Shown here piece after piece: positions 30,546-57,589 of a stretch of 64,000 nt of DNA. How positions within the stretch are numbered: position 1 is the first letter of the stretch; each line of letters starts with the position of its first letter. The notes under the pieces were generated by a model. That model did no database searches. It was not told where the DNA came from and worked only from the letters and a program-made list of their open reading frames with translations. The stretch comes from Escherichia coli. GTDB taxonomy: Bacteria > Pseudomonadota > Gammaproteobacteria > Enterobacterales > Enterobacteriaceae. Position numbers and translations under genes: made by a program. Where the stretch lies: NCBI GenBank assembly GCA_025544715.1, contig GCA_025544715.1_4109.1; one strand, 5' to 3'.

Positions 30546-32039
30546 ATGACATATAGAATGTGGAAAAAAGGTAGAACCAATGATTACAAGTTCATTGATT
30601 CTGCCATTGCTGAACAATACAACATTGGTGGAGTTGACATGTGGCTTTATGCATATGTCGGTCCAAAACAAGTTGCTGACAACACTGACTTATCCTATGG
30701 AGGTGATTATACATCTTCAGGATCAGTTGTGTCAAGTATTGGCGATTTAATTTTTGGTGACACACCAAACAGAAACTACAACCTTGAAGCTATCACACTT
30801 AGTTGTGTCTATCAAGTTCAAGAAGCAACTCCAGACTTGAAAATCCCAGGATTGTTCTTTAATTTCAACACTATGGACATCACAATCCATTATAATACAA
30901 TGATGCAGCGTTTAGGTAGAAAAATCATGCCAGGGGATGTGATAGAACTACCAAATTTACGTGATTTTGATGTATTGGGTAAAGATACAGGTCTAAACCG
31001 CTTCTATGTCGTCCAAGATGCATTTCGTACATCTGAGGGATACTCGGTTACGTGGCAACATCACATTTATAAACTTAGAGTTAAACCGCTAACCGACTCA
31101 CCTGAGTACTCCGATTTACTCGGTAACAATAATTATCCTGATAATCCAGATGACCCTAATAATGGTAATGGAAATACCGATGATGGTTCGTCGGAAAACA
31201 GTAACTATGACAATGAAATGGATATCATGAACCGTATCATCATGCAAGCTGATGATGAAGTACCCTACATTCATTTTACAAATGAACATTTGTATGATGA
31301 TCGACCTGATACTGTAGATTTATCAAAATATATGCTTAATGGTTATGATTTCCCAGAAGAACCTGCCGATGGAATGTATTTTTTGAAAAAAACATACCCA
31401 GTACTCAAAGAGTTTGTTAATGATACATGGATTTCTGTGGAAGTCAAGCGTGGAACTATCTTTCCCAGAAAACCAATGGATGGTGACTTCTTCTTTAAAG
31501 AAAATGACGCAGATGTGACAGGTTATACGTTGTATCAATATGATAAAAGTGCTAAAAAATGGTTAAATTGTGATGTAGAATATACTACCAGTGATGTTCC
31601 ACCAGAAGATGTGGAAGATTTTTGTATTTTTTATAAAGAACCACACATTTATCAGTATAATGATGACAAGTGGGGGGAACCAAAGGTAACTTATGTCAAT
31701 GAACCATTCACGTCCAATTGTGTATATGGTAATATTGATTCCCAACAAGATTATCGTCCTAAAATTCCACCAGCACGAGGTACTGTCCCTGAAGGAAATA
31801 TGTTCCCGACTGATGCAGTAGATGGTGACTATTTCTATCGTACCGATTATACCCCAGTTACGTTATGGGAATTCAATGCAACTAAGAATTCATGGGTTAT
31901 TTTTGATTATGGTGGAAGAAAACCGTGGGAAGGTGCAGACCTAGCACTTACACAGTTTGTAAATAGTGATAACAAAGTTCCATTACATGACGCAGTTAAA
32001 CCTAATACTGTTTATCGCATACATAAGGACACAGAATGA
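30546..32039 (+). CDS. Virion structural protein, possibly baseplate wedge gp8-like
   Basis: Start placed at ATG 30546 (GGAG RBS). GGVDMWLYAY and three P-x-DG-x-YF repeats resemble T4 gp8 segments (weak recall). Confidence 0.55.
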   Translation: MTYRMWKKGRTNDYKFIDSAIAEQYNIGGVDMWLYAYVGPKQVADNTDLSYGGDYTSSGSVVSSIGDLIFGDTPNRNYNLEAITLSCVYQVQEATPDLKIPGLFFNFNTMDITIHYNTMMQRLGRKIMPGDVIELPNLRDFDVLGKDTGLNRFYVVQDAFRTSEGYSVTWQHHIYKLRVKPLTDSPEYSDLLGNNNYPDNPDDPNNGNGNTDDGSSENSNYDNEMDIMNRIIMQADDEVPYIHFTNEHLYDDRPDTVDLSKYMLNGYDFPEEPADGMYFLKKTYPVLKEFVNDTWISVEVKRGTIFPRKPMDGDFFFKENDADVTGYTLYQYDKSAKKWLNCDVEYTTSDVPPEDVEDFCIFYKEPHIYQYNDDKWGEPKVTYVNEPFTSNCVYGNIDSQQDYRPKIPPARGTVPEGNMFPTDAVDGDYFYRTDYTPVTLWEFNATKNSWVIFDYGGRKPWEGADLALTQFVNSDNKVPLHDAVKPNTVYRIHKDTE

Positions 32040-51128: not shown

Positions 51129-52058
51129 TTATACAGCCATAGGTGCTTTAATTGTTGGCATTGGGTTGTAATTCACTAATTTGAAAGAATCCATTGTGAA
51201 ATCTTCAATATTAGTAATTGTAGGATCAAGCCACAATTCAGGTAATTCACGAGGTTTTCGCTGTAGTTGTTCTTTTACTTGTTCAACGTGGTTTTTATAA
51301 ATGTGACAATCACCACCATTCCAAATAAATTCACCAACATCTAAACCAGTAATTTGTGCAATCATATGAGTTAGTAGTGAGTAACTACTGATATTAAATG
51401 GAACTCCCAAAAATAGATCAGCGGAGCGTTGATGTAGAATGCAGCTTAGTTTCCCTTGTACTACACAAAATTGCACAAAGCTATGACAAGGTGGCAACGT
51501 CATATCATCAAGCTCACCAACGTTCCAGGCACTTAGAATGTGGCGACGACCATATGGATCGGAATGTATACCTTTGATTAGTTCTTGTAATTGGTCAGTT
51601 GTACGTTTCATAACAACACCATGTGAACCAGTATAATCGATAACTTTGTATCCTTTATCTTTTAATTCTTGAATTTCTTCAGTACTGGAACTAAATTTAT
51701 AATCTTCCCATTCACGCCATTGCTTACCATACACTGGACCCAATTCACCATCAGTATAACCAAGAGCAACGCCTTGATTTAGGTAATTATCTGTCCAAAT
51801 TGTTTTCTTTTCAGTATCACGAGTTCCATGCAAAATTTCACAAAGGCGACGCTCATCATGGGAACCTTCAATAAACCATAGTAATTCTGAAGTCATTGCT
51901 TTCCAAGCTAGACGTTTTGTCGTCACTGCTGGGAAACCATCGTTAAGGTCGAAACGCATTTGTTGACCGATAAGTTTGATTGTCCCAACACCAGTACGGT
52001 CAACGCTTTCTACGCCTTCATCTAGAATTTTTTGATATAGTTCTTGTAGTTGTTTCAT
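51129..52058 (-). CDS. thyA: Thymidylate synthase, ThyA type (T4 td-like); a dUMP hydroxymethylase is not excluded
   Basis: LPPCHSFVQF (catalytic Cys), RSADLFLGVPFNISSY (Asn predicts dUMP specificity), GDCHIYKNH; uninterrupted 309-aa ORF, no intron. Confidence 0.9.
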   Translation of the reverse strand: MKQLQELYQKILDEGVESVDRTGVGTIKLIGQQMRFDLNDGFPAVTTKRLAWKAMTSELLWFIEGSHDERRLCEILHGTRDTEKKTIWTDNYLNQGVALGYTDGELGPVYGKQWREWEDYKFSSSTEEIQELKDKGYKVIDYTGSHGVVMKRTTDQLQELIKGIHSDPYGRRHILSAWNVGELDDMTLPPCHSFVQFCVVQGKLSCILHQRSADLFLGVPFNISSYSLLTHMIAQITGLDVGEFIWNGGDCHIYKNHVEQVKEQLQRKPRELPELWLDPTITNIEDFTMDSFKLVNYNPMPTIKAPMAV

Positions 52059-52651
52059 TATACTTCCTTGAAAAATGTAATAAAATGTTCCATATGTTTT
52101 TCTGTGGCATTGCGTGAACCAATACCAGTCCAGTTTCCATGTGGAGGTGGAACCACGAATGATTGTTGGAACTCTTTCAGTACTGTATCGAAATAAAATA
52201 CTGAACGTGAATTCATATCATAACAATAAATTTCAGGATTTTCAACTGAATCCATATACATCTGTACTGCCCATGCAGTACCACCACTTACCTTAGTTGG
52301 TGATGTGATATTTGCAATACAATATATTCTTTCTGTATTAAGTATCTGATAACTATTCCTTGCAAGTAAGTTGTAAACATAAGAACCAGGCTTCGGTACT
52401 TTTCGCTGTAACGAGTAACATGCAATGTTTAGTTGATTTAATATAGAAATATCAGATAGAATATTGGATGGTATTTCTAATATAGTACTTTCATCTACAC
52501 TATGCTCATGACCTTTGAATGAAAAATTAATAACTTCAAATCCATTATTTTTTGCATAGATAGAAAAAAGGCGGTCAGCACCTGCTGCCCCGCCACTAAA
52601 ACATACATTAGATAAACCTTTTATTGCTTCATCTAATTCATTCTTTTTCAT
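52058..52651 (-). CDS. SLOG-fold (DprA/LOG/YpsA-like Rossmann) protein, predicted nucleotide-ligand binding
   Basis: N-terminal glycine loop FSGGAAGAD and later VSGGTAW motif; stop/start coupled to thyA. Confidence 0.55.
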   Translation of the reverse strand: MKKNELDEAIKGLSNVCFSGGAAGADRLFSIYAKNNGFEVINFSFKGHEHSVDESTILEIPSNILSDISILNQLNIACYSLQRKVPKPGSYVYNLLARNSYQILNTERIYCIANITSPTKVSGGTAWAVQMYMDSVENPEIYCYDMNSRSVFYFDTVLKEFQQSFVVPPPHGNWTGIGSRNATEKHMEHFITFFKEV

Positions 52652-53313: not shown

Positions 53314-53559
53314 TTATTCTCCTTTATCTTCTTGAGTTTCACTATCTTGTGATTCAGCTTCTTCTTTAGCTGCATCTTCTTGTGCTTTAATATCTTCAAG
53401 AGCTACATTTGCAAAAGAAACAAATTTAGATACAACTGGAGCAACCTCAACAAGTTCTTCAACTTTAAAGGTGTTTCGTGCAACAGCAGCTTCCATAATT
53501 TTTGCAGCATTGATTAGGTCTAGAAGGGTTAGTTGAATTTGATTATTTTCTTGTTCCAT
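53314..53559 (-). CDS. Small acidic protein (about 81 aa)
   Basis: Start placed at second ATG (MEQENN...) with GGAGAG RBS; C-terminus rich in E/D. Confidence 0.5.
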   Translation of the reverse strand: MEQENNQIQLTLLDLINAAKIMEAAVARNTFKVEELVEVAPVVSKFVSFANVALEDIKAQEDAAKEEAESQDSETQEDKGE

Positions 53560-53593
53560 TTTAATACTCTCCATGTATATTGGTACATTAACT

Positions 53594-53621
53594 ATTATAT
53601 CATATTTTTATAAGTTGTCCC
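53594..53621 (-). promoter_or_regulatory. Candidate early promoter (GGGACA-N16-TGATATAAT)
   Basis: Extended -10 TGATATAAT identical to the strong promoters; weaker -35. Confidence 0.35.
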
Positions 53622-53625
53622 ACTT

Positions 53626-53657
53626 ATAAAAAGAAGAGAACGGAAAATTCCGTTCTC
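53626..53657 (-). terminator. Rho-independent terminator ending the MoxR-vWA operon
   Basis: Minus-strand GAGAACGG-aatttt-CCGTTCTC followed by TTCTTTTTAT. Confidence 0.65.
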
Positions 53658-53669
53658 ATTATTTAGTAC

Positions 53670-55094
53670 TTAACTACGTTGACGCTTTTTATCAGCTTCA
53701 TATTCGTAGTGTACAGTCTCACCAAATGGTGCAACTTTATTTGGGTTACTGTGAATCACGAACAGTGTTTTACAGTAGTTTGGATCACCCCACGACTGCC
53801 ACGGTTCACCATCTGTAAACATTACAAGCTGTTTAGGCTTGTAGTTGTCGTTCTTCATATGAACCCATACTGCTTCAAAGTCAGTACCACCACCACCTTT
53901 TACTGGATATTCCAGAATCTTACGTTCTTCGCCAGTTTTGTAATCCTTTACAGTATAAACTTCAGTATCAAAAGTCATGATACGAATCTTAAACTGTTTG
54001 AATTGTTTAGTGATACCTAGAACTTCACTAATGAAATCACGAAGCATATCTTCAGAAATAGATCCAGAAGCATCTAGTGCAATCGCAATATCAATGTCAT
54101 CATCTGGTTTCATCCCTGGGTAAATTGGATTACCATAGAATGAACCATTAGAACCAAAACCTGCACCCCAAGAACGACGATTCGGATTTTGATATGTTGC
54201 ATCAGACTTCAACCAACTACGAAGTGTGCGTTGAAGTTTTGAACGCCAGTCAATCTTTGGTTCTTTAAAGTTGTTAATCATACGAGCGATTTCTGCTGGT
54301 GTACCACCTGCACGAGCAGCATTCATCATTGCTGTTTTGAAATCATCCATGTAATCACGTTTTTGTTTCTCACTTGAACCACCCTCTTGACCTTCTTGTG
54401 GAACGTCATGCTGGTCAATTGTAGTACCTTTTGGTTTACCCTTACCATCTTTAATATCGCCAAAAGTACCGCGATTTTTACCTTCACCTTCGCTACCACC
54501 ACTTTGTGGTTGACCTTCACCTTCACCATCTTCTTTTTGTTCTTCTTCTTCAAGAAGAATGTAAATCTCTTCTGCGGTCATACCTTCATATTTTTTATCA
54601 TACAACCATGAACTTTGGATTTTTCCAATTTTCTCACGAACGATGATTTGGTTAATGGCATAATCCGCTGCACGGTTATAACGTTGTGGATCACGCATAC
54701 CACGACGAAGGAAGTGATCGTAAGCACAGTGTAGAATTTCATGACAAATTACAGCAATAAGGTTTTCATCAGTCAAACCTTCAGTCATTTCTTTTAATTG
54801 TTCGTCTGTAACTTCAGGGTGCTTTTCACGAATAGCTTCTTCATATTCTTTCTTTTTAGATGGGTCTTGAATGCCCATTACAAATTCTACGTTGTAGAAT
54901 AGATGTTTACCATCCACTGCTAGAGTACGACACCATGTATTATTAGGAACTGGACGTAAACGTGAAGCGAGTACGCCAAAGAATGGTGCAGTTAACATCA
55001 AAGATGTACGAGCCAGAACCAGACGATCTTGACATTCTTTCTGAAGTGCAGGAGATACTTCATTGAATATGGAAGTAGATTTGTTATCTGACAT
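53670..55094 (-). CDS. vWA-domain protein with N-terminal HExxH metallopeptidase-like module (CobT-like partner of the MoxR ATPase)
   Basis: HEILH motif; acidic low-complexity linker EEEEQKEDGEGEGQPQSGGSEGEG; C-terminal vWA with MIDAS-like DASGS and a Gly-rich GGGGTD segment. Confidence 0.85.
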   Translation of the reverse strand: MSDNKSTSIFNEVSPALQKECQDRLVLARTSLMLTAPFFGVLASRLRPVPNNTWCRTLAVDGKHLFYNVEFVMGIQDPSKKKEYEEAIREKHPEVTDEQLKEMTEGLTDENLIAVICHEILHCAYDHFLRRGMRDPQRYNRAADYAINQIIVREKIGKIQSSWLYDKKYEGMTAEEIYILLEEEEQKEDGEGEGQPQSGGSEGEGKNRGTFGDIKDGKGKPKGTTIDQHDVPQEGQEGGSSEKQKRDYMDDFKTAMMNAARAGGTPAEIARMINNFKEPKIDWRSKLQRTLRSWLKSDATYQNPNRRSWGAGFGSNGSFYGNPIYPGMKPDDDIDIAIALDASGSISEDMLRDFISEVLGITKQFKQFKIRIMTFDTEVYTVKDYKTGEERKILEYPVKGGGGTDFEAVWVHMKNDNYKPKQLVMFTDGEPWQSWGDPNYCKTLFVIHSNPNKVAPFGETVHYEYEADKKRQRS

Positions 55095-55168
55095 GTATAT
55101 TTCCTCGTTTAGTTAAGATAAAAGAAGGATACCATTAGGCATCCTTCTTGTCAACAACTCTTTGTTAA

Positions 55169-56494
55169 TTAGCCAAGAGAGCGTGCTTTACGTACAAGTT
55201 CAGAGTACTTAGCGATGAAATCTTTAAACGCTGGTACATCTTTAATGGAAATCGCAACCTTATGAAGCGTGATGGTACGAATTGCCAGTACTGCCAGTTC
55301 TGCTTGAGTTGCAGAGAAGTTATGGTCTAGGAAGGTGATGAAGTTGTTACACAGTTTACCCCATTCTTCCACTGGTAGACGTTGTTCTTGCTTCTCATTG
55401 AACAGGTCGATAATTTTATAAACCAAGTTCAGAGTGATAAAGTAGTTCGCAGAAATATCCAGCGTTGCGTCGATTTCTTTGATTTCACCAGACAGAATAG
55501 ACATAGTATCTGGTAGTTTAGCAACGTTCTCAACGTACTCAATGTATTCAGTCGCAACACCTTCACCAACACGACCAGCAATCATTGCACGGAACACTTC
55601 TTTATCAATTGTCTTATTTTTCTTGAGATCTTCGTAGCGTGCTACTGCTTCCCATGAACGTGGAGAAGTACCACCGCTGTGAGAAGGATCTTGTGGGCTA
55701 AGTGTGTTAAAGTACTTAGAACCAGTGTTGTTGATGAACGCAACAGTTGCTGGGTTCAAACGTTTTGCAATCGCATAATCGTTAATCCAATCTTGATGAT
55801 AAGGAATCATCTCAATGTGAGTCATACGGTCACGCAGTGGTGTAGCAAGAGAGAACGTTACACCGCCATCAGTTTCACGGTTACCTGCTGCAAGAATCAG
55901 TGCAGTCTTAGGTAGCTTCATCTCACCAACACAACGGTCGAGGATTAGCTGATAAGACGCTGCCTGAACAATAGGCATTGCAGAGTTAATTTCGTCAAAC
56001 AGAATAACACCTTTCCAATCTTCGGACAATTTCAGTACTTTAGGTGCAGCCCATACTACCGCTGTTTCAGCTACATAATCTTTTGCTTCGGCAAGCTCAG
56101 ATTCTTTCAGAAGAGAACCGTCAGTTTTACGGAAAAGCTTCTCTGGAACTGGAATACCGCGAAGGTCACTTGGTTCAATTTGAGACAAACGGAAATCGAT
56201 AAAGTTAGTATCTTGGTCGATTAGTTTTGCTTCAAATGCAGCCAGTTCACGGCGTAGCTGATCAGCATTTTCAGGGTCAGCTTCGATTTGTTGTTTCATG
56301 AACTCGATTTTAGCTACGTTATCTTTACGCAGTGGGTAATTTTCATCAGCATATTGACGAGCGATAGCAGACTTACCGATACCTGGGCTACCCCAAATCA
56401 TCAGGCTATCTTGAATCATGTCAGCCAGTGCCATTGCTTCTTTAGCTTTCTTTGGAGTCAGTTTAACGTTCAGGATATCGTTTTGAGTAGTCAT
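55169..56494 (-). CDS. MoxR/CobS-type AAA+ ATPase (AAA_5-like)
   Basis: Walker A GSPGIGKS, Walker B ILFDEIN, single AAA module. Confidence 0.85.
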   Translation of the reverse strand: MTTQNDILNVKLTPKKAKEAMALADMIQDSLMIWGSPGIGKSAIARQYADENYPLRKDNVAKIEFMKQQIEADPENADQLRRELAAFEAKLIDQDTNFIDFRLSQIEPSDLRGIPVPEKLFRKTDGSLLKESELAEAKDYVAETAVVWAAPKVLKLSEDWKGVILFDEINSAMPIVQAASYQLILDRCVGEMKLPKTALILAAGNRETDGGVTFSLATPLRDRMTHIEMIPYHQDWINDYAIAKRLNPATVAFINNTGSKYFNTLSPQDPSHSGGTSPRSWEAVARYEDLKKNKTIDKEVFRAMIAGRVGEGVATEYIEYVENVAKLPDTMSILSGEIKEIDATLDISANYFITLNLVYKIIDLFNEKQEQRLPVEEWGKLCNNFITFLDHNFSATQAELAVLAIRTITLHKVAISIKDVPAFKDFIAKYSELVRKARSLG

Positions 56495-56561
56495 GTATAT
56501 ATTTCCTTTTGTTGGATAAAATCGTTTAAGTTTCTATTATAGCCAATCCGTGGGCAAAAGT

Positions 56562-56602
56562 AAAGGAACTGTGTTAAAATAATTTAACTTATCAGTTCCT
56601 TT
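56562..56602. promoter_or_regulatory. Perfect 10-bp inverted repeat with 21-nt spacer in the MoxR leader (operator or RNA hairpin)
   Basis: AAAGGAACTG ... CAGTTCCTTT, located between the tandem promoters and the MoxR start codon. Confidence 0.5.
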
Positions 56603-56663
56603 GTTACTTCATGAATCATCCGTGTGTTTAAAAGGTAAATCTCTTTGCTGTCTTGATGTGAAC

Positions 56664-56691
56664 ATTATATCACATCGTTTCAACTTGTCAA
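56664..56691 (-). promoter_or_regulatory. Strong sigma70-type early promoter (TTGACA-N16-TATAAT, TGn extended -10), proximal
   Basis: Minus-strand TTGACAAGTTGAAACGATGTGATATAAT; A-tract UP-like element upstream. Confidence 0.65.
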
Positions 56692-56758
56692 TCACTTTTT
56701 TTCTTTTTTTTTTCAAACTCACATCTTGTGACGCTTGAAAACTTTATGTATGATGCTT

Positions 56759-56786
56759 ATTATATCACATCATTCTATCTTGTCAA
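56759..56786 (-). promoter_or_regulatory. Strong sigma70-type early promoter (TTGACA-N16-TATAAT, TGn extended -10), distal
   Basis: Minus-strand TTGACAAGATAGAATGATGTGATATAAT, 95 bp upstream of the proximal copy. Confidence 0.65.
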
Positions 56787-56809
56787 CATTTATTTTTAAT
56801 TCATTTTTC

Positions 56810-57190
56810 TTACATATGAATAGAAAATAACTGTTTAAAATCATCACAACACAATGTTAATTCAGTTATTATCATTGCATCTGTCAGATATATGTACTGA
56901 CCTTCAACATAGTAAGGTGAAGTACATATTCTGTCAAGTGATGTAAACATTATAGAACTTTTAAATTCTCTTTGCAAGGGGATTTTTGTAAATTCATAAA
57001 GATTATTTTCTTTACAAATTCCATATCCAAACTTACTAAGACGTAAACCACCGCCAGTTCTGAAATTTTCAAAAATTGACATCAGAAGCATACGGTCTGT
57101 TATTTCTGAATCTGATTCATGTACTTCCCTAACTTTGGAAAGTACATTATTTTGATATTCAGTACTGTTATGTGATGGTTCTGGAAACAT
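56810..57190 (-). CDS. Hypothetical protein (126 aa), last gene of an eight-gene coupled operon
   Basis: ORF separated from the upstream gene by 3 nt. Confidence 0.6.
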   Translation of the reverse strand: MFPEPSHNSTEYQNNVLSKVREVHESDSEITDRMLLMSIFENFRTGGGLRLSKFGYGICKENNLYEFTKIPLQREFKSSIMFTSLDRICTSPYYVEGQYIYLTDAMIITELTLCCDDFKQLFSIHM

Positions 57191-57193
57191 ATA

Positions 57194-57589
57194 TTAGTCT
57201 CCAACAAAACCTTGACGTGCAGCATAAGATGGTGCACCAGGTTCATTATAGTGTTGTACACCTTCTTTGTCAATTGTTGGTCCCATACCTTCAGTACCAA
57301 AACAACCTGCAATGGCTTCCAACACTTCATCATCAGCAACTTCAGTACTTTCATCATTATATCGAATGTCAGACAAAATGTCACAGGCTTTTTGTAGTTT
57401 ATCTACAATTTCTTTTTGGTCTTCACCAGATTTAATCTTATCAACAATGTTAATAAGACATTTGGTAATATCCTTAAGAACATCAACTGCTACAACATCG
57501 GATTCAACTTCAACTGAAAAACTTTCGTCTTCATCTCTTCCGGTAATTTCGTCTAACGCTTCAACTAGTTCACGATAATTATATTGCAT
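57194..57589 (-). CDS. Acidic hypothetical protein (131 aa)
   Basis: Strongly D/E-rich; start 1 nt after the upstream stop. Confidence 0.6.
   Translation of the reverse strand: MQYNYRELVEALDEITGRDEDESFSVEVESDVVAVDVLKDITKCLINIVDKIKSGEDQKEIVDKLQKACDILSDIRYNDESTEVADDEVLEAIAGCFGTEGMGPTIDKEGVQHYNEPGAPSYAARQGFVGD

Follow-up and report, generated by a model that had tools for sequence, protein, structure and literature searches.

An Asteriusvirus copy of the phage N4 gp24/gp25 gene pair: a MoxR-class ATPase, a vWA-peptidase adaptor and a candidate role against host defence

What does a jumbo phage do with a MoxR-class ATPase encoded beside a von Willebrand factor A (vWA) protein that carries a peptidase motif, and how is the expression of the two genes set? 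The question is raised by a 64,000-nucleotide stretch of Escherichia coli assembly GCA_025544715.1 (contig GCA_025544715.1_4109.1, hereafter the window), where every feature of this gene pair and of its regulatory elements lies on the minus strand. The surrounding region (53400–57100) is 98.5–98.8% identical to PBECO4, 121Q, phAPEC6, G17 and other members of Asteriusvirus, a genus of jumbo coliphages of ~350 kb. We are nearly certain that the two genes correspond, in Asteriusvirus, to N4 gp24/gp25, a pair widespread among phages. Gene 1 encodes a MoxR-class (NorQ/CbbQ-like) AAA+ ATPase and gene 2 its adaptor, in which a linker, acidic and flexible, connects a vWA domain with an intact metal ion-dependent adhesion site (MIDAS) to an HExxH zinc peptidase domain that is N-terminal and of putative activity. 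The full account that we favour adds to this identity an unfoldase–protease mechanism, an anti-defence role and a scheme of expression, and we give it a probability of about 0.48.

The original prediction, made from the letters of the window, was of a two-gene unit of this kind with its own promoters and terminator, and every element was found where it had been placed. Its further claim of an uncharacterised functional system overstated the novelty. The genes are annotated in GenBank records of the same genus, belong to the core genes of N4-like phages, and the pair has been described by Iyer et al. 2021 (Viruses 13:63); being thus annotated and described, they are already known in kind, and the window copy is not a new member. 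What the window adds is the regulatory anatomy of the unit, a modest amount of new detail that is well supported by comparison.

Identity and distribution of the two proteins

The coding features of the unit are as follows.

55169..56494, minus strand: MoxR-class AAA+ ATPase (N4 gp24-like), 441 amino acids; PHROG 1297, E 2e-107
53670..55094, minus strand: N4 gp25-like protein, 474 amino acids, with a DUF2201_N metallopeptidase domain, an acidic disordered linker and a C-terminal vWA domain (DUF2201)
54714..54743, minus strand: HEILHCAYDH codons (H118, E119, H122, H127), a putative zinc site, from conservation
54375..54548, minus strand: acidic, Gly-rich linker (~residues 183–240), disordered in the model
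54060..54074, minus strand: MIDAS codons D341-A-S343-G-S345, with T404 and D428 further on, from conservation

By BLASTP the two proteins match N4 gp24 (E 1e-28) and N4 gp25 (E 4e-30), in identical gene order. N4-like phages have 14 core genes, and these two are among them, listed as ‘unknown’ and ‘vWFA domain’ and described as middle genes; the RaK2 record likewise names its orthologs ‘gp24-like’ and ‘gp25-like’, and that of phAPEC6 ‘MoxR ATPase’ and ‘N4 gp25-like protein’. Among 50,697 phage records searched with tblastn, the ATPase was found in 813 and the vWA protein in 692, with almost identical counts per host genus, in Rak2-like jumbo phages, PA5oct-like phages, Vequintavirinae and their relatives, and N4-like phages. 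With a presence in ~1.5% of the phage genomes sequenced, the pair ranks with the most broadly conserved phage gene sets for which no function has been demonstrated. The two genes adjoin in the window, in N4 and in Rak2-like phages, as expected of coupled partners. Bacterial genomes hold at least 526 loci, mostly in Acidobacteria, with the ATPase gene upstream on the same strand in 62 of the 69 loci that leave room for it and often with a third gene, of ~314 amino acids, between the two.

Several side observations concern the arrangement and naming of the pair. The acidobacterial loci (L030–L096, e.g. L043 4026–7182) are three-gene operons with overlapping stop and start codons, in the order ATPase (~336 amino acids), the ~314-amino-acid protein, which has no Pfam match, and vWA-peptidase (~402 amino acids). 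Three small open reading frames (ORFs) and a homing endonuclease separate the genes in PA5oct-like phages (L013 and L104: MIJ3, PA5oct), and a 503-amino-acid gene does so in the jumbo Vibrio phage 2.275.O (L097). Names in public records can mislead: vWA-peptidases appear as ‘HNH endonuclease’, ‘DNA repair ATPase’ or ‘Zn-dependent hydrolase’, and the ATPase as ‘Transcriptional regulator MoxR1’.

The Walker A (GSPGIGKS, residues 35–42) and Walker B (ILFDEIN, residues 164–170) motifs that the original prediction had pointed to are both located in the 441-residue ATPase. In an alignment of 62 sequences, the Walker A residues G35, G38, K41 and S42, Walker B E168 and N205 are invariant, as are D100, R102, L103, D110, G113 and P115 of an RLSQxEPxDLRGIP core and P278 and R279 of a PRSW motif; S280 and W281 of that motif, like D167 and R206, are conserved in at least 90% of the sequences. 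The residues expected of an active AAA+ module (Walker A, Walker B, sensor 1 and arginines) are thus all in place. Curated profiles place the protein less directly. Against Pfam, the generic AAA profile scored 21.3 bits, borderline at a cut-off of 21.2, AAA_3 scored 16.6 bits, under its gathering score of 27, and AAA_5, which had been expected, gave no match. Homologs of ~360 amino acids with 29–33% identity carry both AAA_5 (PF07728) and AAA_3 (PF07726), and the MoxR class, for want of a direct curated profile match, rests on this transitive homology and on the fold. The structure model (predicted local distance difference test, pLDDT, 87.8) matched NorQ chains first in a Foldseek search of the PDB (E 3e-7, template modelling score 0.57–0.63 on the target), with further matches to NorQ–NorD complexes, CbbQ2, dynein AAA modules, midasin and McrB. 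Two insertions set the jumbo-phage clade apart: ~50 amino acids, helical, after Walker A, and ~30 amino acids after DLRGIP. By analogy with these relatives, we infer a hexameric ring with client-remodelling ATPase activity.

The vWA protein is assigned directly. Both DUF2201 domains scored well above their Pfam gathering thresholds (PF13203, DUF2201_N, 122.4 bits against 23.2; PF09967, DUF2201, 75.0 bits against 26.4), bearing out the anticipated DUF2201_N-type metallopeptidase and vWA profiles, and the protein matches PHROG 1314. The HEILH motif spans residues 118–122; H118, E119 and H122 show no variation among 66 homologs, nor in a set of 69 that includes the distant N4 gp25, Vequintavirus and PA5oct-type proteins, so that the proposed conservation of HExxH stands, and H127 is kept in at least 90% of homologs. 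An acidobacterial homolog has the HExxH motif as well. The acidic linker that had been proposed is present at ~residues 183–240, is disordered in the model (pLDDT below 50 at residues 195–220) and differs in sequence and length among homologs. The MIDAS motif is complete, with D341, S343, G344, S345, T404 and D428 invariant in homologs, and the fold matches of the vWA domain include NorD and the midasin MIDAS.

Searches beyond these families were negative. Neither protein matched NCBIfam or the PADLOC models at E up to 0.01, and searches of PDB sequences with the single proteins and with profiles found no significant relative past the P-loop or vWA level. The NCBIfam library includes models for CobS, CobT and NorQ. 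The label ‘CobS-like’, which the original prediction had given to the ATPase, is therefore unsupported.

Promoters, leader and terminators of the unit

The predicted transcription signals, again from 5′ to 3′ of the unit, are these.

56664..56809, minus strand: two copies of a 51-nt promoter unit, 95 bp apart and 75% identical (direct repeat)
56759..56786, minus strand: promoter P1, TTGACA-N16-TATAAT with TG (extended -10) and an A-rich tract upstream; consensus scan, 12/12
56664..56691, minus strand: promoter P2, TTGACA-N16-TATAAT with TG and an A-tract upstream; consensus scan, 12/12
56553..56602, minus strand: leader hairpin AAAGGAACUG...CAGUUCCUUU with an inner GUUAAA/UUUAAC stem, then UUUACUUUUG; from folding and comparison
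56536..56564, minus strand: possible promoter P3, TTTACT-N17-TATAAT, 10/12 matches, overlapping the leader U tract and lying downstream of it
55114..55149, minus strand: intercistronic hairpin between the ATPase and vWA genes, 12-bp stem, then UUUUAUCUU (hairpin with T tract 55149..55122 in the scan)
53627..53657, minus strand: unit-end intrinsic terminator, 9-bp stem GAGAACGGA/UCCGUUCUC and U tract (stem and T tract 53657..53636); from a scan

The two perfect promoters, 95 bp apart with A-tracts and a common core, were confirmed in every detail. The core GATGTGATATAAT has its only exact occurrences in the window at P1 and P2. Four perfect TTGACA-N16-18-TATAAT sites occur in the 64-kb window, as against a mean of 0.16 in shuffled sequences (0 of 100 shuffles reached four), and only six intergenic TGnTATAAT sites are found in it, three of which serve this unit or the next. 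Across seven Asteriusvirus genomes (80–99% identity), the -35 of P1 is kept in all seven and its -10 in six (TACAAT in SP27), and P2 keeps its -35 in six (TTGACG in ph0011) and its -10 in all seven; the spacers vary and the hexamers are nearly constant. RaK2 retains P1. Consensus hexamers, spacing, a frequency above chance and conservation together mark P1 and P2 as probable sigma-70 promoters, and the two 51-nt units look to be an old tandem duplication. The intergenic region of SP27 (L004, 296–705) is 95 bp longer, the P2 unit and the first part of the leader being duplicated to give three tandem promoters. The two other perfect sites of the window, with spacers of 17 or 18, lie at 57245–57273 (minus strand), inside an ORF upstream of the unit (57194..57589), and at 30706–30735 (minus strand).

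From its predicted start at ~56657, P2 would give a leader of ~163 nt, which folds more stably than shuffled versions (z = -3.2). The perfect 10-bp inverted repeat noticed earlier (56562–56571 and 56593–56602) is real; it is part of a longer hairpin, unique in the window and followed by UUUACUUUUG, that is best described as resembling an intrinsic terminator, in place of the generic leader palindrome first suggested. The G17 record annotates it as a terminator. In RaK2, Munch, pEa44, GAP32 and the loci L100, L101 and L098, the hairpin follows a single extended -10 promoter, and a common layout (upstream stop codon, extended -10 promoter, ~35–45 nt, hairpin and U tract, ~50–60 nt, ATPase start codon) is found in five named lineages, namely Asteriusvirus, Alcyoneusvirus RaK2, Salmonella phage Munch, Eneladusvirus and Mimasvirus, and in metagenomic relatives. 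Ten sequences were placed in register by hand and checked against the originals, because MAFFT had left the left arms of the hairpin out of register; at three of the nine stem pairs both sides have changed in a compensatory way (G-C to A-U, A-U to C-G, U-A to A-U), with one wobble and one non-pair at the base of the stem. Depending on the lineage, the arms stand 4 to 22 nt apart, a variation that argues for an RNA hairpin and makes a DNA operator for a dimeric repressor unlikely. A leader-peptide attenuator was also rejected, the small ORFs of the leader differing in frame or length, or being absent, and having no ribosome-binding sites. We read the hairpin as an intrinsic-terminator-like attenuator that may also end the upstream operon.

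Two sequence patterns in the leader stand beside this reading as separate observations. CACGGAU(G/U) flanks the hairpin at 56544–56552 and 56616–56624 (minus strand), with three sites in the window against 0.79 expected, and AYGGAU stands at the two corresponding places in other genera; the motif resembles the GGA-type sites of CsrA-like RNA-binding proteins. In the predicted fold, ACCUUUU near the 5′ end pairs with AAAAGGA, the ribosome-binding site of the ATPase gene (56630–56645 and 56500–56512, minus strand). Both strings are kept in Asteriusvirus and RaK2, not in Munch, and no covariation was found for the pairing.

The hairpin could be read in another way, as nothing other than the terminator of the upstream late operon, or, with P1 and P2, as the source of a non-coding RNA of ~100–195 nt, the ATPase then being expressed mainly from the weaker P3 or by unregulated read-through; the tandem promoters would in that case not govern the genes as the original prediction had assumed. 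That the upstream structural operon has no terminator of its own between its stop codon at 56810 and the hairpin would fit such an arrangement, as would the order of stop codon, extended -10 promoter and hairpin with U tract in several genera, the conserved sequence from P2 to the hairpin with AYGGAU on both of its sides, and the -10 element of P3, whose TATAAT is kept within Asteriusvirus (JNE01 has TGGTATAAT there). P3 is, however, not kept in the other genera compared, and outside Asteriusvirus the related loci showed no promoter-like site at all between the hairpin and the ATPase start, so that there the ATPase gene must be transcribed through the hairpin. A permissive Rfam search of the leader returned chance-level matches and no family, and the small ORFs, as said, are not conserved. 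We consider this explanation rather improbable, at about one chance in four, and prefer the attenuator.

Between the two genes, a hairpin with a U tract is found in 10 of 11 Rak2-like loci, with stem sequences that are unrelated to one another; retention in spite of unrelated stems indicates that the feature as such is under selection, and the Munch record annotates this hairpin as a terminator. It would probably set the subunit ratio, with more ATPase than adaptor. The TTGACA at 55154, which overlaps it, is probably not part of a promoter, having a poor -10 (TATCCT) and being kept only within the genus. The unit ends with the 9-bp stem and T tract that had been put forward as its own terminator; the G17, UE-S1 and Munch records annotate it, and a strong hairpin lies 3′ of the vWA gene, with the next promoter directly after, in most of the related loci examined. 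At the leader, intercistronic and unit-end elements alike, a stable hairpin runs directly into a U tract and has been maintained in evolution, as expected of intrinsic terminators. All the sequence elements of the original prediction are thus real; what it missed are the intercistronic hairpin, the possible promoter P3 and the terminator-like nature of the leader palindrome. Our confidence in the transcription anatomy as a whole is good, at roughly three chances in four.

The timing of expression is another matter. The unit had been called early from its promoter consensus by itself, a step that lacks support: a terminator-like hairpin intervenes and N4 gp24 and gp25 are middle genes. If locus-tag numbers equal the gp numbers of the paper, the PA5oct homologs of both genes fall in the region called middle/late. 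We found no transcript data for any Asteriusvirus, and those for PA5oct come from a distant relative. With an attenuator in the leader, N4 counterparts that are middle genes and such data from PA5oct, early expression is no more than a possibility.

Past the unit, the next one starts from GGGACA-N16-TATAAT with TG (53621..53594, within 53560–53625, minus strand). A palindrome at the ribosome-binding site of its small gene is conserved, as ATACATGGAGAGTAT in the window and AATACATGGAGTGTATA in five other lineages, and the gene probably starts at 53560, as in the G17 record, not at 53574. Most records leave unannotated a gene at 52058–52651 (minus strand), between the small ORFs and thymidylate synthase; its PHROG match is 768, ‘DprA-like DNA recombination-mediator protein’ (E 1.3e-26). 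The thymidylate synthase coding sequence measures 1554 bp in UE-S1 (L002, 104–1657) as against 930 bp in the window and G17, which could reflect an insertion or an annotation merge.

What the pair may do

The sole phenotype for any homolog comes from a 2025 transposon screen of the Vequintavirus Bas54 (MaxBurger), the HIDEN-SEQ preprint (10.1101/2025.11.20.689424). The Bas54 homologs are bas54_0063 for the ATPase (E 6e-33) and bas54_0055, recognised through Pfam, for the vWA protein. Both were non-essential on E. coli K-12 (TA-site saturation 0.94 each); on the clinical strain CFE311, insertions in bas54_0063 were depleted by a log2 of -7.23 (adjusted p 0) and those in bas54_0055 by -2.20 (adjusted p 0.009). 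These values are from Data S6 of supplementary file 9, which is titled K-12_vs_CFE303; its command line and data files name CFE311, and we read it as K-12 vs CFE311. From plaque assays with a knockout, the same work reports bas54_0063 to be specifically required against a cloned two-gene predicted defence system, DS-28. In that phage, therefore, the data favour a conditional anti-defence role and argue against an essential role in assembly, and defence interference, one of several roles floated in the original prediction, now has the best experimental hint. The CRISPRi-ART paper has no content on these genes. A neighbour of the Vequintavirus vWA gene can be set aside: bas54_0056/bas56_0054, immediately upstream of it, shows no BLASTP similarity to the ATPase, and the ‘anti-sigma factor’ or ‘anti-termination’ of some records is this unrelated gene; nor is the acidobacterial 314-amino-acid middle gene, which has no Pfam match, related to it.

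By analogy with NorQ–NorD, CbbQ–CbbO and midasin, a mechanism can be proposed. The MIDAS site would grip a client protein by one of its acidic residues, the vWA domain would dock on the ATPase hexamer, ATP-driven pulling would remodel the client and the tethered HExxH peptidase would cut it, making the pair a two-subunit, substrate-targeted unfoldase–protease. For its expression, host sigma-70 RNA polymerase would initiate at the tandem P1/P2, the leader hairpin would limit or delay read-through into the ATPase gene and insulate the unit from the upstream structural operon, the intercistronic terminator would hold the adaptor-peptidase below the level of the ATPase, and the strong terminator would close the unit. 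A host-directed target, probably one in anti-phage defence, has in our view close to an even chance, and the most likely role, taken over from a homolog with 24% identity, would be the accessory disabling of a host protein, especially a defence component, over essential particle assembly.

Several findings weigh against this account. Its phenotype evidence is a preprint on a pair with 24–30% identity, from another phage subfamily and with genes that are not adjacent, and the vWA partner had only a weak effect there. Anti-defence genes are usually variable, whereas this pair is core in N4-like phages and keeps its synteny in every Rak2-like phage, a pattern that speaks for a more general role. 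Caesium chloride-purified virions of phAPEC6 contained gp265c, a near-identical ortholog of the ATPase (6 peptides, 19% coverage), and the PA5oct ATPase homolog (E 6e-49) is flagged ‘ESI-MS/MS’ (electrospray ionisation tandem mass spectrometry) in its record, as would fit an assembly or structural role. As to the peptidase, the matches listed in both fold searches with the vWA protein model all fall on the vWA domain alone.

The virion data are what a published prediction for exactly this pair would lead one to expect. Iyer et al. 2021 proposed a virion assembly chaperone with a processing protease, which mounts or folds structural proteins such as tail fibres and trims them with the peptidase, comparable to the MoxR–vWA proteins in tail growth of the archaeal virus ATV; the position of the unit directly after the structural-gene block in Rak2-like phages and its place among the core genes of N4-like phages would agree with it. 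The vWA-peptidase is, however, absent from the virion table of phAPEC6 (as gp264c) and has no ESI-MS/MS note in PA5oct, and the phAPEC6 list also includes thymidylate synthase, so that carry-over of abundant non-structural proteins is possible. Both Bas54 homologs are non-essential on K-12, the unit, in contrast to the structural genes next to it, has sigma-70 consensus promoters, and the N4 pair consists of middle genes beside dCTP deaminase and replication genes. We rank assembly second, at some one chance in four. Far less probable is an enzyme activase or metal-cofactor insertion chaperone of the NorQ–NorD, CbbQ–CbbO or CobS–CobT type, with a client such as an enzyme of nucleotide metabolism. 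NorQ, NorQ–NorD complexes and CbbQ2 are the closest solved structures, thymidylate synthase is near in the window and dCTP deaminase in N4, and the ATPase had been called CobS-like; but the invariant HExxH peptidase domain has no counterpart in any of those systems, the NCBIfam searches were negative, the neighbourhoods of the pair differ between phage groups and the Bas54 phenotype is specific to a host strain.

A broader version of the host-directed account, which would take in the virion data, is more tentative and we hold it at around a quarter: the pair would be a general ATP-driven, substrate-targeted protease that dismantles host immune proteins (DS-28 and possibly others), with some of the ATPase carried in the virion, and in Rak2-like jumbo phages the leader attenuator, whose flanking AYGGAU motifs are possibly bound by a host or phage RNA-binding protein, would determine when and how much of it is made, together with the intercistronic terminator. 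Were it true, Schitoviridae, Vequintavirinae and Rak2-like jumbo phages would share an anti-defence machine of a mechanistic class that is new. Should the unfoldase–peptidase mechanism and the anti-defence role that we favour hold, phages would have a new way to neutralise host immunity and a long-standing N4 ‘unknown’ would be explained; the transcription anatomy provides clean, testable handles for studies of expression.

Comparison with known systems

The closest solved folds, for the ATPase and the vWA domain alike, are those of NorQ–NorD and CbbQ–CbbO, systems in which a MIDAS-bearing adaptor couples the substrate to a MoxR hexamer. Their adaptors differ from the window protein in having no peptidase, their substrates are metabolic enzymes, and sequence identity to the window proteins is 12–16%, with no profile match at curated thresholds. 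A MoxR and vWA core is also common to the bacterial vWA-MoxR ternary conflict systems (VMAP, iSTAND, FtsH), whose vWA component in some cases carries fused peptidase effector domains (Kaur et al. 2020, eLife 9:e52696). Those, however, serve the host in defence or conflict and include a third signature protein, whereas the phage pair has no third conserved gene, gives no PADLOC match and carries its peptidase at the N terminus, of the DUF2201_N type.

Among phages, the Bas54 pair belongs to the same two families (a match at ~30% identity) and is the sole homolog with a phenotype; its genes lie 3.6 kb apart on opposite strands, identity is 24–30% and the effect of the vWA partner is weaker. The ‘group 2.2’ pair of Iyer et al. 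2021 (examples ASV44729.1 and ASV44728.2), which we set beside the window by its description only, agrees with it in architecture, a MoxR ATPase beside a vWA protein that has its metallopeptidase at the N terminus, and comes from jumbo phages of a like kind; that work proposed virion assembly and proteolytic processing without experiment and did not describe promoters or terminators.

The remaining comparison is with N4 gp24/gp25, a core pair of the N4-like phages (Schitoviridae). The window proteins are larger, the ATPase by its two insertions and the vWA protein by an extra segment of ~34 amino acids and a long acidic linker. N4 middle genes are transcribed by the phage’s own RNA polymerase II, and the N4 pair is transcribed among them, whereas the promoters in the window are of sigma-70 consensus type. 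Under these differences in size and transcription, the two pairs are homologous proteins in the same gene order, with the HExxH, MIDAS and Walker motifs in common.

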